Positions 2,706 through 23,562 of a stretch of 32,123 nt of DNA are shown one piece after another; the stretch's first letter is position 1; every line of letters begins with the position of its first letter. Made by a program: the position numbers and the translations under genes. This stretch comes from Elainellaceae cyanobacterium (GTDB lineage: Bacteria; Cyanobacteriota; Cyanobacteriia; CAZCXK01). The stretch covers positions 1 to 32,123 of the forward strand of contig JBNPEG010000131.1 of the NCBI GenBank assembly GCA_051117555.1. The letters are read 5' to 3'. The notes under the pieces are model-generated. The model had not been told where the DNA came from. It saw nothing but the letters and a program-made list of their open reading frames with translations, and ran no database searches.

Positions 2706-2900
2706 CTAATCTCGCTGCTTTAAGAACTGATAGGTTGGTGGCTGCCAAATCTCAGCGCTAGACGAAAAATATGCAATTAACACGATCGGAATGATCAATG
2801 TTATCAGGGCAACAAAGGTGCCGATAATATTTGAAAGAGTCGTATGACTTCGTTCGTGAGGTTTGTCGGTCTGACTACTACTACTACTACCAGATTCCAT
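2706..2900 (-). CDS. Small single-pass membrane protein, hypothetical
   Basis: 64-aa ORF with ATG start and one hydrophobic helix (IIGTFVALITLIIPIVLIAYF); co-oriented between the HTH gene and ppa. Confidence 0.7.
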   Translation of the reverse strand: MESGSSSSSQTDKPHERSHTTLSNIIGTFVALITLIIPIVLIAYFSSSAEIWQPPTYQFLKQRD

Positions 2901-3301
2901 GCCTAATGAATAATTTGAGGAAATGATCTAACCCAGCGTGATACACGTATGCACCACATATAAACAGACATCACTGTATCAGATGCTTATTTACACCCAT
3001 ACGGCCCTTCACCAAACTAACTTCAACCCACGATGAATCTATTCCGGTTTCAACACTAATGCTTGAATACTTGCTAAATCTTAGCGTTTTGTGCTGGGAT
3101 GAATTGTTCGGTTAATACCATAATTTGGCTAATCCCTATATTAGAAGTTGCCCCTTTGCCTGCCATCAATCAAAGGAGTTATTTAATCAGGCTCAGTCTT
3201 TAGCCAATTGGCGATCGCCTTTGCCTCTAACTGAATTCATTTGAATCATTGAAGCTATCTCCACTCACAACCCATTTGGGATTGCTATAGAATTTGTGCG
3301 T

Positions 3302-3649
3302 TTAAGAGGAAGACTCCAGGCGATGTCGAATCTGTTTCAATTCAGACAAGATTTCCTTGAGAAGTTCGTGGGTTGTTGTCTGAGGAGGGGCTTGAACCTC
3401 GATTGTGACCTGCTTAATGCCCAAAACATCTCGTGCAAATCGAGCCACTTCATTGGGATGGAATAAAAGCGGATCATCTTGATGGATACGGAGTTCCGGA
3501 TTCAAGCGTTTGGGATTATAGGGAGGATTCAGGTCATCAATCTCGGTGTTGGCATATCGATACACCGATGCCCTAGAGCGATTTAGGGCATGTTGAACTG
3601 CATCAACGGTCATCAAGCCTGACTGATTAGGTTGAGACGTCTCATCCAT
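3302..3649 (-). CDS. Conserved cyanobacterial small HTH DNA-binding protein (often auto-annotated 'resolvase')
   Basis: MTVDAVQHALNRSRASVYRY excisionase/MerR-like HTH, LLFHPNEVARFA wing and C-terminal coiled coil ILSELKQIR; no serine-recombinase catalytic domain. Confidence 0.88.
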   Translation of the reverse strand: MDETSQPNQSGLMTVDAVQHALNRSRASVYRYANTEIDDLNPPYNPKRLNPELRIHQDDPLLFHPNEVARFARDVLGIKQVTIEVQAPPQTTTHELLKEILSELKQIRHRLESSS

Positions 3650-3773
3650 AGCTTTGTATCAATTCTAGACTTACCGTATTATTTTAAGTCCAAAATTGGA
3701 CAGTCTATTCTTATTTTGAGATAAGTCTAGCTCTCCGCCAATTTTTATAACCCTACGGGCTCAGACGTGTGTA

Positions 3774-3839
3774 TATAGAAATGTGCAATTGCGTCAAGTG
3801 CAGAAACGGTGTGTGGAGCGCGCCACACCACCGGACTTA
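3774..3839. mobile_element. MITE-like element family A, inverted and truncated copy
   Basis: TATAGAAATGTGCAATTGCGTCAAGT...CACCACCGGACTTA matches the reverse complement of about 1376-1441. Confidence 0.7.
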
Positions 3840-4410
3840 GCTGCTGGATAGGTGCGGATCTACGCCTCTTTGAAAAGCTGATGGTAATAGATGATGCGGC
3901 ATTTGGGCGATGATCACCCCGAAACGGTGGACTGGGACAGTCGAGGAAACCTAGACCCGTCGGCAATGAGAATTGTGTGATTTCAAGCATATTCTGTCTG
4001 GGATGGACAAGATATGGTTTGACTCACACGTTTTGATTAGTTGCGGTAACAACAACTAATCAAATATTAAAAACCCCTTCCAATATTTGATTTCAGAGAT
4101 ACCACTTTAATATCTGGACTAATTTTGGACTAATTTCAACTAAGGGTTTATACGCCTAGTCATGCCACTATTTAATGAGTCGCTCCAAATTTAGCATCGA
4201 TGCTGCAAGCCATGACTGGTCAACCGAATACCCATTACAGGGACGGTTTGCACTTCGCGATCGCCATACCTTGCATAGCATAGGTGAGATCAAGAGATGC
4301 GAATTGATTAATATTAATTTTCCCTGAATAGAGATAACCCATGCCCTCCAGAATTGGTAATAGTTCGAGCTAGTAACTCTCCTTAAATCTACACAAAGGC
4401 TCGCTCATAT

Positions 4411-4641
4411 CAAGACTCACCCGCTTATCATAAGACCCAAAATGAGTCTATGAGTCTTAGTATGAGATAATCGTGTTGCGAGATAGGGCACGAGAATTTT
4501 CAAAGACCATTAAAAGAACATTCAAGATTTTCTCATGCGCCCTATCTCATTTGAGACTCATTAAATTTATTTGAGACCCAATTTAAGACTCATAAATTCA
4601 AATTAAGACTCAACTTAATAATTAAATTCTCAGATTAAGAC
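4411..4641. repeat. Array of (T)RAGACYCA boxes, iteron/operator-like
   Basis: Direct boxes at 4411, 4431, 4552, 4572, 4584 and 4604; partial boxes at 4624 and 4636; inverted boxes at 4443 and 4451; AT-rich spacers. Confidence 0.75.
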
Positions 4642-4666
4642 AAGCCCGTAGTCGAGAGAAAATGTT

Positions 4667-6068
4667 TTAACGATTGAGATTTTGAAGATCTTCTGTGCGA
4701 TCGCTCGTCAGTCGTGCCAAACAACTGCTCAAGTAGGTGCTGTATCCCGTACCCCCTTCCGCATCACTCACTTCAAATGTGCAGTGGGCATCCCGGAAGT
4801 CAATCCAAGCAAGCTGAGCGTCAGTTAGCTTTTCGATCGCCGTCGAATTCAAATCAGCCCGCAGCTCCTGATATACCTGATTGAGCGTGTCATCCGTCTT
4901 CTCATATGCCAGCCCAGCACAGGTATTCATCTCGACCGTAGTTTGAGGATTCTCGCAATCCATCACATACCCGTTAACCGTGACGCTGCCTAAATTTTCC
5001 CAATTCGTCTCAGGAACATGAAGCAAACGATCCATGCCTTGCAGGTTTAATTGCTCTAATTGCTCTGTGCGATCGCGCGTTAGAGTCGCAAGACAGGTGT
5101 TGAGAAATGCTGAACCTCCCTCATCATCCGCAATATAGTGGGCGTCATAGCGACAGCTTGCATCCCGAAACCTAAGCCAAGCCTGCTGAGCATCCACCAA
5201 TTTTTCTGTGGCAGCCAAATCGAGAGCGGCGATCGCGCGCTGATACACCTGATTGAGTTGAGCGTCAGCCTTCTCATAGTCCTGCTGAGCATGTGGGGCA
5301 GTTGATTGCTGGCGTTGCGACTCCTCGTATAGAGTCTCTGACACCTCTCCCAAAGGTTGGCTATCCTGCTCCAACCGATAGCCATCGACCATAACCGCCC
5401 GGATTGCCGCATCAGATCGATAGTCCGTCGTCTCATAGAAAGATCCCTCCACCGAATCACCATAGACTCCAGCGAGTGTATAACGAGGTGAAATATCCCC
5501 CCGTATGGAAGCCATTCGTTCGGAATACGACGTTAGAGGCTGAAAAATCAGCAAATTTCACCGACTCGCGCATCTCATTCTGAGAATTGTAAGACAGCGT
5601 TGGTTGCCCGTAGACCGAAACGGCTTGATTAATTGAGAGCCCAGGCCCTACGCCTTCTGGAGTGCGGAATGCAGGATTCGTCGTCAACAAAAGCTGAATC
5701 GGATCGTCATCCTGCATCGGCTCATGCTCAGATTGAATGATGTAAAACAGGGTGTCCCCATTTTGGCGAACGGCGATCGCATCAAAATCCACCATGAAAG
5801 ACTGCTCTACAACAAATTCAGCGCGATCGCCAAGCTGCTGTTTAAGTTCTCCTAGTGTCATACCGAGCCGAGCAGGACCAATCTGGTTGTGGGTGATCAC
5901 TCGGTCATAGGTGAGTGCAGAAAGAGGCTCTACTGACGAGATAGAATCTGCTTGACGTGACCTTCTATCACGCTCTCCGCCTGCTGATGAATCCGCATGA
6001 GGAAACGCTAAGGTAGAGCAGCCTACCACCATTACTAACAATCCGGAAAAATACCACTTGAGGTTCAT
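4667..6068 (-). pseudogene. Lipoprotein with tandem LprI/DUF1311 (lysozyme-inhibitor-like) domains, frameshifted
   Basis: The 5' ORF (6068-5457) has a lipobox signal VVGC. The 3' ORF (to 4667) has two 'D..LNQVY...L.DAQ.AW..FRDA.C' domains. Removing one G from the G6 tract (cccccc 5497-5502) fuses them into 466 aa. Confidence 0.8.
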
Positions 6069-8083: not shown

Positions 8084-10366
8084 ATGACTTCTCAAACGAA
8101 GGATGAGCTTAGATGGAGTCGATGGAAGCTCTGGCGACCTCATGTAGCGACGCTTGTGATGCTAGCGGTTGTTTGTATTTCAGCAGCCGTCGTCGGAGCT
8201 TGGTTCTTCGGTCAAGGAACAATTAGCGAGATTTTCTCTAAATTTGATATGTCTCAGGCTAATCCTCCGATTTGGCTTGAGGTACCCAGAGTTACGACAG
8301 AATATCTACTCGTTCCGACGGTGATTCTGCTCGTAGTGGTATTTGGAGTGATGAAAGTTTCGCCCCATCCCCAGCAGTGGTCTCGCTTCGTCGTCATTGG
8401 AATTTTGTCGGTCTTGGTCATTCGCTATTTGATATGGCGATCGCTCTCGACCCTAAACTTAAGCACCCCATTAGATGGCGTGTTTAGTCTAGGACTATTC
8501 TTTTTAGAGTTACTGATTCTAGGAAACGGCTGCATTCAGCTTTTGCTCATGCTGAATGTCAGAGATCGACACCATGAAGCTGATGTGTTAGCGCAGGATA
8601 TCATCGACGGTCATTATAGACCCTCAGTTGATATTCTAATTCCGACCTATGACGAGCCAAACTTCATCTTGCAGCGCACTATCATTGGCTGCCAAGCGCT
8701 CGATTATGACAACAAAACCATCTACCTGCTAGACGACACACAGCGTGACGAAGTTAAAATACTCGCCGACCAACTCGGATGCAAATACATTCGCCGATCA
8801 GACAACCGTCATGCCAAAGCAGGCAACTTAAATCATGCGATCGCCAAGACAACTGGCGAATTGATTGTCGTCTTTGATGCTGATTTCGTTCCCACCAAAA
8901 ACTTCCTAATTCGTACGATTGGCTTCTTTCAAGACCCAAAAGTAGGACTGATTCAAACACCGCAAAGTTTTTACAATCCTGACCCAATCGCCCGTAACCT
9001 GGGTCTAGAAGATGTCTTAACCTCAGAAGAAGAGGTTTTTTATCGACAGATTCAGCCCATGCGCGACGGAGCAGGTGGGGTCGTCTGCTCAGGTACGTCC
9101 TTCGTGGTGCGCCGCAGCGCCCTCCAGGCCACAGGCGGATTTGTCACCGAGTCTCTCAGCGAAGATTATTTTACAGGCATTCGCTTGGCTGCCCAAGGCT
9201 ATCGACTCGTTTACCTAGACGAAAAACTGAGTGCAGGCTTAGCAGCCGAAAATATCTCATCTCAAGCAATGCAAAGGATTCGTTGGGCACGAGGCACCCT
9301 GCAAGCCTTCTTCATTAAATCTAATCCGCTCACTATTTCAGGATTGCGTCCAATTCAGCGATTGGCATATCTAGAAGGATTGTTGCACTGGTTTACCAGC
9401 GTGTCGCGAGTTGGCTTCTTGCTCATGCCCTTGGCCTATTCGTTTCTCGGCGTGATTCCGCTGAGAGCCACCCCCGCCGAACTTTTATATTTCTTTCTAC
9501 CCTACTATCTCCTTCAACTGTCTGTATTTGCCTGGCTCAACTATCGCTCCCGTTCGGCTCTACTTTCAGATATTTACTCACTTGTGTTGTGTTTCCCACT
9601 TGCACTCACCGCAATTCAGTCGATGCTAATTCCCTTTGGTAAAGGGTTTAGAGTAACTCCAAAAGGAACCGCAAGCGATCGCTATTCGTTTAACTGGGCA
9701 CTTGCCTGGCCTCTAATCATCATGTTTGTTGCGACTGCCGTCAGTCTTTGGATCAACCTCGGATTGTCCATTGTCCATGAGGCAGAAATGGCAAACCTGG
9801 CTCCCGAAGTAGCAGAACAGATGAAACATCAAATGCGAGGATTTGACCTTGGCTGGATTTGGAGCGCTTACAACTTAATCATGCTTGGCATTGCGCTGCT
9901 GATTTTACTCGATGTCCCTCGTCCTACCTTTTATGACTGGTTTGATCTGCGCCGTACCGTCCGAATCAAGCTGGACAATCGCACCTTTTGGGGAATTACG
10001 CGCATGGTTTCCGAAATTGGCGTTGACGTTGAATTAACCCAAGCCGGTTTTCCAGCCTTAGCGCATGGCGAATCTATTCCAGTCAAACTCAATCTCTTAG
10101 AAGATGATCTGAGGTTCATGGGGCAAGCTATTCAAACTGGACAGCACAACGAATTTCCGACCGTTCGCATTCGGTTTGAAAACCTCACCCTTGAGCAGCG
10201 ACGTGCGCTGGTTGAAATGCTGTTTTGCCGACCTGGGCAGTGGAAAAGCCGATGCACCCCGGGAGAACTCCAGTCTCTGCTGATTTTATTGAAGATTCTG
10301 CTGAAGCCTCGCGTCATCTTTGACCGCAACGTAGACGTTCGCCCGGTCGCCGTGTCGAAAGTGTAG
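8084..10366 (+). CDS. GT2 cellulose synthase-like catalytic subunit (BcsA/CcsA-like) with C-terminal PilZ-like domain
   Basis: LLDD, HAKAGNLN, FDAD, QTPQ, SEDY and QRIRW motifs; multiple transmembrane helices; FRVTPKG gating-loop motif. Confidence 0.92.
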   Translation: MTSQTKDELRWSRWKLWRPHVATLVMLAVVCISAAVVGAWFFGQGTISEIFSKFDMSQANPPIWLEVPRVTTEYLLVPTVILLVVVFGVMKVSPHPQQWSRFVVIGILSVLVIRYLIWRSLSTLNLSTPLDGVFSLGLFFLELLILGNGCIQLLLMLNVRDRHHEADVLAQDIIDGHYRPSVDILIPTYDEPNFILQRTIIGCQALDYDNKTIYLLDDTQRDEVKILADQLGCKYIRRSDNRHAKAGNLNHAIAKTTGELIVVFDADFVPTKNFLIRTIGFFQDPKVGLIQTPQSFYNPDPIARNLGLEDVLTSEEEVFYRQIQPMRDGAGGVVCSGTSFVVRRSALQATGGFVTESLSEDYFTGIRLAAQGYRLVYLDEKLSAGLAAENISSQAMQRIRWARGTLQAFFIKSNPLTISGLRPIQRLAYLEGLLHWFTSVSRVGFLLMPLAYSFLGVIPLRATPAELLYFFLPYYLLQLSVFAWLNYRSRSALLSDIYSLVLCFPLALTAIQSMLIPFGKGFRVTPKGTASDRYSFNWALAWPLIIMFVATAVSLWINLGLSIVHEAEMANLAPEVAEQMKHQMRGFDLGWIWSAYNLIMLGIALLILLDVPRPTFYDWFDLRRTVRIKLDNRTFWGITRMVSEIGVDVELTQAGFPALAHGESIPVKLNLLEDDLRFMGQAIQTGQHNEFPTVRIRFENLTLEQRRALVEMLFCRPGQWKSRCTPGELQSLLILLKILLKPRVIFDRNVDVRPVAVSKV

Positions 10367-23343: not shown

Positions 23344-23562
23344 ATGAGCACTCTCGATGAAAAGCTAGAAATACTGATTGACCAGGTGGGGCGTCTGACA
23401 GAAGGCTTAACCGATATCAAGCTAACGACTCAGCAACAAGCAGAAGTCGCACGGCAGAATGCAGAGATCGCATGGCAGAATGCAGAAACCTCTCGCCAAC
23501 AAATCGAAGCAGTCAATCGACTCACTCGAATCGTAGAAGCTCTAATTGACGCGAGAGTATAG
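23344..23562 (+). CDS. Small coiled-coil hypothetical protein
   Basis: 72-aa ATG ORF; DQVGRLTEGLT followed by Q/A/E heptads encoded by 21-bp tandem repeats. Confidence 0.7.
   Translation: MSTLDEKLEILIDQVGRLTEGLTDIKLTTQQQAEVARQNAEIAWQNAETSRQQIEAVNRLTRIVEALIDARV

Follow-up and report, generated by a model that had tools for sequence, protein, structure and literature searches.

The 32,123-nucleotide window analysed here, contig C167 of an Elainellaceae cyanobacterium (256-contig, 6.06 Mb assembly G000, 48.8% G+C), carries phased arrays of a short box, RAGACYCA, in the non-coding DNA upstream of a minus-strand open reading frame (ORF, 3302-3649) that encodes a 115-residue protein predicted to bind DNA through a helix-turn-helix (HTH). 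The boxes share a motif that forms non-tandem clusters only at this locus in the genome, accompanies the same gene across its family and follows rules of spacing and orientation. Because motif and strict spacing recur before this gene across cyanobacteria, the boxes are likely to be the neighbouring protein's sites. Judged from sequence, it is reasonably probable that they are operators to which the protein binds cooperatively and in phase, regulating its own gene. That this protein occupies the boxes, acts as a repressor and brings the clusters into loops or a filament is our inference. An earlier, sequence-only reading of this DNA had linked the boxes to the small HTH gene; that link holds, through enrichment across the family and the lack of comparable clusters elsewhere in the genome.

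When the sequence was re-checked, every box listed in that reading was found in place: CAAGACTCA at 4411, TAAGACCCA at 4431, an inverted TGAGTCT at 4443, TGAGTCTTA at 4451, TGAGACTCA at 4552, TGAGACCCA at 4572 and TAAGACTCA at both 4584 and 4604, followed by a CTCA remnant near 4629 and TAAGAC at 4636. The window contains 12 matches to RAGACYCA, whereas shuffled sequence gives 4.03 ± 2.09 (0 of 100 shuffles reach 12), and seven of the 12 lie within 4412-4612. Scored with a matrix from other species, the left distal cluster (4405-4465) has centres at 4415 and 4435, with AGACT on the plus strand, and at 4447 and 4455, with AGTCT on the plus strand; the four score 15.7, 13.6, 9.4 and 15.0 bits, respectively. 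The right distal array (4546-4646) has centres at 4556, 4576, 4588, 4608, 4620 (degenerate) and 4640, with a weak remnant at 4628. The spacings of these centres, 20, 12 and 8 bp on the left and 20, 12, 20, 12 and 20 bp on the right, mean that the phasing is real and confirm the +20/+12 rhythm noticed earlier, the right array alternating 20 and 12 bp exactly. The boxes of the right array all share one orientation. The highest-scoring of them, TCAAATTAAGACTCAA, reaches 19.0 bits; with the first matrix it reaches 18.7 bits, where the maximum is 19.1. The right array begins about 20 bp past the stop codon of an LprI-like gene and contains a 32-nt duplication, D1, with 75% identity.

Two further clusters, absent from the earlier reading, lie between this array and the gene. 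A putative proximal operator cluster on the minus strand (3659-3731) has centres at 3669, 3689, 3709, 3721 and 3726, scoring 11.3-14.7 bits, and sits over the predicted promoter. A middle pair of variant boxes, TCTGGACTAAT and TTTGGACTAAT (4108-4139), is centred on 4118 and 4129 with 11.2 and 12.7 bits. The arrays thus lie 10-990 bp upstream of the gene, and downstream of it, in the region 2900-3300, there are zero sites of at least 11 bits by the cross-validated matrix described below. A small hairpin at 4034-4064 (TTGATTAGTTG ... CAACTAATCAA) adjoins the GGACT middle pair, within a block that can be aligned to a sister species. Between the two distal clusters lies the imperfect inverted repeat described earlier (4480-4496 and 4530-4548; arms 17-18 bp, loop about 33 nt). 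Its stem of 17-18 bp has a z of about −3 on both strands, and one of 200 shuffles folds equally well. On the minus strand it is not followed by a U-tract, and no second copy is listed in the assembly. As a shared feature the repeat does not stand, since conservation is missing already in the sister species, and it may lie outside the box system.

The link to the gene was assessed at 99 orthologue loci, comprising 19 of 20 from related genomes (L012 was omitted; L029 covers the same place) and 80 from a one-genome-per-species collection, with titles ranging from Leptolyngbya- and Elainella-like genera to Cyanobium and Synechococcus. When words in the −300..−1 regions upstream of the orthologues were compared with flanks, box words were the most enriched at every length: AGACT (140 versus 222, 4.3-fold), TGAGAC (53 versus 47, 7.6-fold), TAAGAC (7.0-fold), GAGACT (6.8-fold), TGAGACT (14.7-fold) and AGACTCA (13.3-fold). 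Ordinary AT-rich words reach only about 2.3-fold in the same comparison. Box density is maximal at −200..0 and still raised to about −1000. Certain 8-mers, such as GAGACGCG, were considered as boxes and rejected, as they were read as coming from the start of a conserved divergent picocyanobacterial gene.

De novo expectation maximization (EM) was run with a fixed site fraction; a free fraction collapsed to a generic AT-rich pattern. It returned TYAa.tTRAGACT.A, a motif of 11 bits with a site of posterior >0.5 in 63 of 96 loci. The core, TRAG-W-CTYA, is a quasi-palindrome of 9-11 bp. In the untrained region −1500..−300, the motif occurs at 0.93 sites per kb, compared with 0.12 downstream and 0.06-0.40 for eight column-permuted matrices, and at least three distal sites are present at 15 of 99 loci against 0 of 99 downstream. 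A cross-validated matrix, built from 87 loci whose proteins are all <72% identical to the 3302-3649 product, reproduces the same motif. The enrichment upstream of orthologues anticipated by the sequence-only reading is therefore found by word counts, by de novo EM and by the scan of distal regions.

The sites are separated by a restricted set of distances. Across the family, centres lie 12 bp apart in 57 pairs (30 loci) and 20-21 bp apart in 88 pairs; longer distances of 32-33 bp (42 pairs), 40-42 bp (31 pairs) and 52-54 bp (36 pairs) follow, with seven pairs at exactly 64 bp. Between these favoured distances there are almost no pairs, and the Fourier power is maximal at 10.25-10.5 bp, a period of about 10.4 bp. 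When loci of close relatives are set aside, 60 of the 65 pairs in distal regions have favoured distances, which make up 29% of the range, and the downstream control regions hold zero site pairs. Orientation is constrained as well. The 12 bp pairs comprise 39 of the form AGTCT..AGACT (39 of 53 are dyads), 13 direct and one AGACT..AGTCT, while the 20-21 bp pairs comprise 29 AGACT..AGTCT, 29 direct and no AGTCT..AGACT. From these counts the usual unit is a dyad whose half-sites are separated by 12 bp and which recurs at intervals of 32-33 bp, or three helical turns.

A scan of the whole genome places these clusters apart. RAGACYCA has 644 matches in the assembly (0.106 per kb), and elsewhere three or more boxes separated by no more than 80 bp occur only in exact 21-nt tandem repeats (C71, C168, C202; contig ends). 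With the cross-validated matrix, the top non-tandem clusters are 4414-4639 (eight centres) and 3668-3725 (five centres). The real matrix finds 11 sites per 300 bp at this locus, and the maximum for 12 permuted matrices is 2-4, apart from one value of 16 that comes from a tandem repeat. Across the genome the count of single sites, 925, shows no excess over the 469-1443 of the 12 permuted matrices, which indicates that the sites concentrate at the 3302-3649 gene. The search for similar clusters elsewhere, proposed with the earlier reading, thus yields none comparable apart from exact tandem repeats. Looser RAGACY clusters elsewhere in the genome were rejected, all of them being tandem repeats with unrelated 21-nt units.

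This genome is strikingly rich in tandem repeats of period 21, with 162 raw and 104 merged arrays by Tandem Repeats Finder (TRF), against 13 of period 20 and 12 of period 22. RAGACY is present in 6 of the 104 merged arrays, which is the chance level (naively 4%), so the box locus is not simply another tandem repeat. One 21-nt family, with a unit of about TTTCCTTTAGTTTGAGACTCA, does match the operator motif, and its period equals the favoured 20-21 bp site spacing. Its arrays are found at C86:58124-58418, C168:31197-31441, C71:1-127, C202:1-83 and C111:39787-40023, and they score as high as the 4405-4646 array. Arrays related to this family differ in exactly the GAGACT part. The match may be due to chance, about two matching families being expected by estimate, or these arrays may be a second class of binding array.

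Further observations on the period-21 arrays were made in passing. Their units are highly diverse, several arrays lie at contig ends, and examples include C150:21585-21999, C86:12-374, C191:11734-12100 and, in the window, 23440-23488. The arrays look non-coding, as stop-free frames reach just 50-70 residues or so past them. A different 21-nt repeat, in which about GAGTCTCTGAGAGTGTCGAGA alternates with the variant CTCTTTAAAGAG, occurs at several loci of this assembly (C47:2205-2452, C135:28568-28807, C22:30045-30276) and also in G002, G003, G013 and G039, genomes from at least two families. The pattern RAGWCTY-N13/14-RAGWCTY was tried as a regulon signature in 41 genomes and rejected; it was mostly not above the reversed control and too unspecific, its matches being dominated by 21-nt tandem repeats.

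Comparison with close relatives shows which parts of the upstream DNA are retained. In the sister species G002, whose orthologous protein is 92% identical, only three upstream non-coding blocks align and every one bears boxes: 3620-3745, with the proximal boxes and the gene start (86% in G002, 87% in G001); 4041-4145, with the GGACT box pair and the hairpin (73% in G002); and 4544-4632, the right array (76% in G002). The segment 4544-4586 also aligns, at 86% and in inverted orientation, with G003, which belongs to another genus. In G003 boxes extend across −774..−32 relative to the orthologue, and another gene takes the place of the upstream neighbour, so the arrays follow the HTH gene and not the LprI-like gene.

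The proximal boxes overlap a predicted promoter on the minus strand (3707-3678), composed of a −35-like TAGACT (3707-3702), an 18 bp spacer and a −10-like AATAAT (3683-3678). It is a consensus match only, in a region where promoter-like matches number 4 against 3.5 ± 2.1 in shuffled sequence. Boxes cover the predicted −35, the spacer, which contains the 14-bp palindrome GTCCAATTTTGGAC, and the DNA just past the −10. Many other loci have a TAAGAT-, TAGGAT- or TAATAT-like hexamer that either has GAGTCT after it within about 7-10 bp or lies between AGACT and AGTCT spaced 20-21 bp apart. Such an arrangement of hexamer and box would suit an autorepressor.

The protein encoded at 3302-3649 is most likely a phylum-wide, single-copy and uncharacterised cyanobacterial DNA-binding protein, as predicted from the following. 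Related genomes have one match each in 30 of 41 cases (29 of the 38 of high quality), and in the one-genome-per-species collection a relative is encoded in at least 589 of 599 candidate stretches. No homologues were found in 72,556 plasmid records or 50,697 phage records. Databases name the protein "resolvase" or hypothetical (2848 homologous clusters), and literature searches, supplements aside, found no paper on this family. No Pfam or NCBIfam family reaches its cut-off: the excisionase family HTH_17 (PF12728) scores 14.9 bits against a gathering cut-off of 27 (E 0.033), HTH_22 scores 15.1 bits, also below cut-off, and none of the MerR Pfam models is listed at E up to 0.1.

Conservation within the family is nonetheless pronounced. 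An alignment of 75 sequences contains 25 invariant columns, including RSRASxYRY and FHPxEVxRF, and the invariant recognition region RSRASxYRY fits a core motif common to the phylum. The hydrophobic heptad residues of the C-terminal helix (L97, I100, L101, L104, I107 and L111) are conserved. An AlphaFold2 (AF2) model from the 75 sequences has a mean pLDDT of 80.7, and a 17-sequence model was poorer (pLDDT 68). Helices are modelled at 15-22, 26-32, 65-74 and 92-114, with no domain after the last. The model places a MerR/Xis-like winged helix-turn-helix at about residues 10-80, followed by the heptad helix at 92-114, and shows a conserved long insert (residues 35-62) in place of the usual MerR wing.

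A structure search of this model against representatives ranks Pukovnik Xis at the top (Z 5.5, 54 of 54 residues aligned), followed by CvkR, a MerR protein (Z 5.1), BldC (Z 5.0), the N-terminal domain of TipAL (Z 5.0) and RdfS (Z 4.8). Lower in the list are the DNA-binding domain of pSK1 Par on centromere DNA (Z 4.8) and RacA (Z 4.5), then GlnR, TnrA and TorI. The MerR proteins CvkR, TipAL, BmrR, SoxR and CueR, among others, align over residues of about 10-80 with Z of 3.6-5.1 by VIA-align, which is below the safe level for a single match, and Foldseek places BmrR and other MerR proteins first at E 0.13 or more. For a predicted structure, the fold signal is the uniformity of this match list, single scores being below the safe level.

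These elements suggest a model for how the array might work. Dimers joined through the C-terminal helix would bind cooperatively and in phase, and since pairs repeat every 32-33 bp, or about three turns, the proteins would all lie on one face of the DNA. Assembly of the putative binder along the array agrees with the strict helical phasing seen across the family. Occupancy of the promoter sites, which cover the predicted −35, the spacer, the −10 and the start, would make the protein a repressor of the gene that encodes it. As extra sites, the middle pair and the distal array (4405-4646) would raise local occupancy; both might loop back to the promoter or serve as nuclei for a filament of protein on DNA, and would thereby sharpen or buffer autoregulation.

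Several results weigh against this model. The left distal half and the inverted repeat cannot be aligned with G002, and only the right half aligns. Most distal boxes in the window are direct repeats and not the dyads dominant elsewhere, although direct orientation may matter little because each box is itself nearly symmetric. A proximal site of at least 11 bits is missing in 46 of 99 loci. The proximal enrichment scored with the matrix is circular, as the matrix was trained on proximal DNA, so independent support comes from the distal and cross-validated results only. The locus counts overstate independence, the 99 loci being from related species. Three 21-nt tandem arrays elsewhere in the genome also score as clusters. 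As for the protein, the fold matches are modest (Z ≤5.5, Foldseek E ≥0.13), and a profile search of the PDB finds no relative.

Other explanations of the boxes account for parts of the same evidence. A different factor might bind them, or they might be promoter elements of unannotated transcripts (a small RNA or a long leader, for example) that start in the spacer; the HTH gene would then be under the control of the boxes and would not encode their binder. The box-like TAGACT does look like a −35 hexamer, some boxes coincide with promoter-like matches (4413-4386, minus; 4571-4598, plus; 3707-3678, minus), and the upstream region of 1 kb is unusually long. These matches, however, do not exceed the shuffled expectation (4 versus 3.5 ± 2.1), no Rfam family was found even at E up to 10, and no conserved RNA or small gene is visible, because only the box blocks align between the sister species. 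A general factor would also be expected to have sites elsewhere, and single sites show no genome-wide excess; this explanation is fairly unlikely. The distal array could instead be a neutral by-product, made of operator units duplicated by slippage and now decaying. The 75% identical 32-nt duplication in the right array, a genome prone to tandem repeats (104 merged period-21 arrays) and the very different array content of the sister species, in which the left half has no counterpart that aligns, would fit such an origin. Yet the boxes keep the 12/20 bp rule while the spacer drifts, equally phased distal clusters are found at loci in other genera, and 4544-4632 can still be aligned with G002 when the surrounding spacer cannot. 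Neutral decay is thus decidedly improbable as the whole account of the distal array.

An architectural role, in which the protein coats the phased array for positioning, segregation or copy-number sensing and autoregulation is a side effect, also seems unlikely, if slightly less so than neutral decay. The array is phased with the helical repeat, it is the sole non-tandem cluster in the genome and hence would be present once per chromosome copy, and the DNA-binding domain of pSK1 Par (Z 4.8) and RacA (Z 4.5) are among the fold matches of the model; this fold resemblance is the sole positive evidence for a possible centromere-like role. The protein, however, ends at its predicted coiled-coil helix and lacks a tail that could target a membrane or bind a partner, the scan of 28 window ORFs found no ParA- or ParM-like gene, large distal arrays are in the minority (15 of 99 loci with at least three distal sites), and no plasmid or phage homologues were found. 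Nor is the position relative to the origin fixed. In eight genomes with the gene and dnaN on one contig, the two are 0.02, 0.12, 0.12, 0.31, 0.37, 0.42, 0.43 and 0.49 of the rounded genome size apart, both 0.12 values coming from one genus. An equally doubtful extension is that a helically phased filament on the single array acts as a single-protein chromosome mark in polyploid cyanobacteria; such a mark, if real, would be a tether or segregation handle, or a titration device reporting copy number through the level of the autoregulated protein. The proposal of plasmid iterons or a replication locus fares worst, together with that of arm-type sites of an integrated mobile element for an Xis-like directionality factor. 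Short repeats in AT-rich DNA, a phage excisionase as the best fold match (Z 5.5) and the weak HTH_17 match (E 0.033) speak for it. Against it, the scan of 28 window ORFs found no Rep, ParA, ParM, integrase or recombinase family, housekeeping genes make up the neighbourhood, gene order with ppa is kept in 37 of 99 loci, and plasmid and phage records hold no homologue. DnaA-box-like words number 13 in the window against 15.7 ± 4.0 expected, with zero in 3650-4666, and no turn in GC skew was found at the site. This origin for the array is very improbable indeed, and autoregulation through phased operator sites is the explanation preferred here.

The arrays occupy a 1 kb non-coding stretch (3650-4666) between two minus-strand genes, 3302-3649 and the LprI-like gene upstream of the array (4667-5554, two LprI domains), which is unusually long compared with the median intergenic estimate of 196 bp at orthologue loci. 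Downstream of the HTH gene lie a conserved neighbour on the minus strand for a predicted membrane protein of 63-64 residues (2706-2900), to which the Pfam scan assigned no family, and then ppa, for a pyrophosphatase (1897-2439, PF00719). Of the 99 loci, 32 have the small membrane-protein ORF downstream on the same strand and 37 have ppa there, and upstream neighbours are variable. Other window neighbours among the 28 ORFs scanned are likewise housekeeping genes, such as hemB and one for a P-type ATPase. No tRNA or tmRNA was found in the window, and Rfam gave zero matches at gathering scores, rows up to E 10 being at chance level only. An ordinary family 2 glycosyltransferase of the cellulose-synthase-like type, with a C-terminal PilZ domain, is encoded at 8084-10366. 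At another orthologue locus (L025, G028:C178), a CRISPR-like array of repeats of about 37 nt (GTCGGACTCTATCGATTCCCCGTGAGGGGACGGAAAC) with unique spacers between them lies at about −975 to −640 upstream of the HTH orthologue.

With these results, a DNA-binding protein that is kept in most cyanobacteria examined and has no family assignment gains a candidate recognition sequence, and a grammar of sites (12-bp pairs every 32-33 bp) is defined along with a natural, putatively high-affinity target. Binding, if true, would account for the unusually long non-coding DNA upstream of this gene. It may also bear on control of the syntenic pyrophosphatase locus and on chromosome handling in polyploid cyanobacteria.

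A comparison of the protein and its sites with known systems reveals a resemblance in outline to BldC, RacA and pSK1 Par, and the 115-residue protein falls outside these groups in the tests run: no MerR or HTH_17 model scores above cut-off, it is not winged-helix-only, no integrase, Rep or Par partner accompanies it, it is not associated with a plasmid, and it has no dispersed sites. In the MerR family, the palindromic operator sits in the promoter spacer. The palindrome GTCCAATTTTGGAC lies between the predicted −35 and −10 of a consensus-match promoter, in a predicted spacer of 18 bp compared with 19-20 bp. The sensor-less MerR regulators TnrA, GlnR, HiNmlR and MtaN join a winged helix to a dimerising helix within about 110-135 residues, a design that the modelled protein, with its putative dimerising helix, may share. 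It differs from MerR regulators in matching no MerR Pfam model and in the insert (35-62) that replaces the wing, and the long phased arrays reaching as far as 1 kb upstream contrast with a single MerR operator. From excisionases in mobile elements it is set apart by the absence of any integrase or recombinase family among the scanned window ORFs.

Partition systems offer a closer parallel in the layout of their sites. In ParR-parC of plasmid R1, two blocks of iterons flank the promoter upstream of the binder's gene, and ParR binding both represses its gene and builds a higher-order complex. The centromere repeats of pSK1 are located upstream of par itself. The present locus shares with ParR-parC the two blocks of phased short repeats, and with partition centromeres in general (parC/ParR, pSK1 par) the repeat array upstream of the presumed binder's gene. 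ParR, however, has a ribbon-helix-helix fold, works with a partner, ParM, and is encoded on a plasmid; none of these features was found here, and unlike partition centromeres the locus has no plasmid homologue, no ParA or ParM among the window ORFs and no tethering domain. The single-protein partition system pSK1 Par of a Staphylococcus plasmid and RacA of Bacillus are described as having a MerR-type winged helix followed by a coiled coil and as binding centromere-like repeats (PMC11500499). The 115-residue protein is predicted to share this order of an N-terminal MerR-type winged helix and a coiled coil. Par and RacA carry a further C-terminal domain that it lacks. Moreover, pSK1 Par is plasmid-borne and RacA binds many sites around the origin, whereas here there is no plasmid homologue and one cluster per genome. 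The locus also differs from the RacA/ram, Noc, SlmA and MatP systems in that no set of many dispersed sites occupies one chromosome region.

The third system, BldC of Streptomyces, is described as a MerR-like winged-helix protein that multimerises head to tail on direct repeats, with target sites made of variable numbers of short repeats on one DNA face, and some BldC-like proteins are annotated there as resolvases or integrases (PMC5859096). Like BldC, the modelled protein has a small MerR/Xis-like winged helix (Z 5.0, root-mean-square deviation 2.4 Å over 52 of 52 residues), and its family, like the BldC relatives so described, is annotated as resolvase. A profile search of the PDB detects no sequence relationship between the two. 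BldC has 68 residues and no coiled coil, in contrast to the C-terminal heptad helix at 92-114. BldC sites are AATT-type direct repeats, whereas the sites here have a TRAG-W-CTYA core and 12-bp pairs that are mostly dyads; the BldC regulon is large, and here single sites show no excess across the genome. If the protein does bind its boxes, the few MerR/Xis-like proteins known to assemble on arrays of repeats would gain a cyanobacterial branch.

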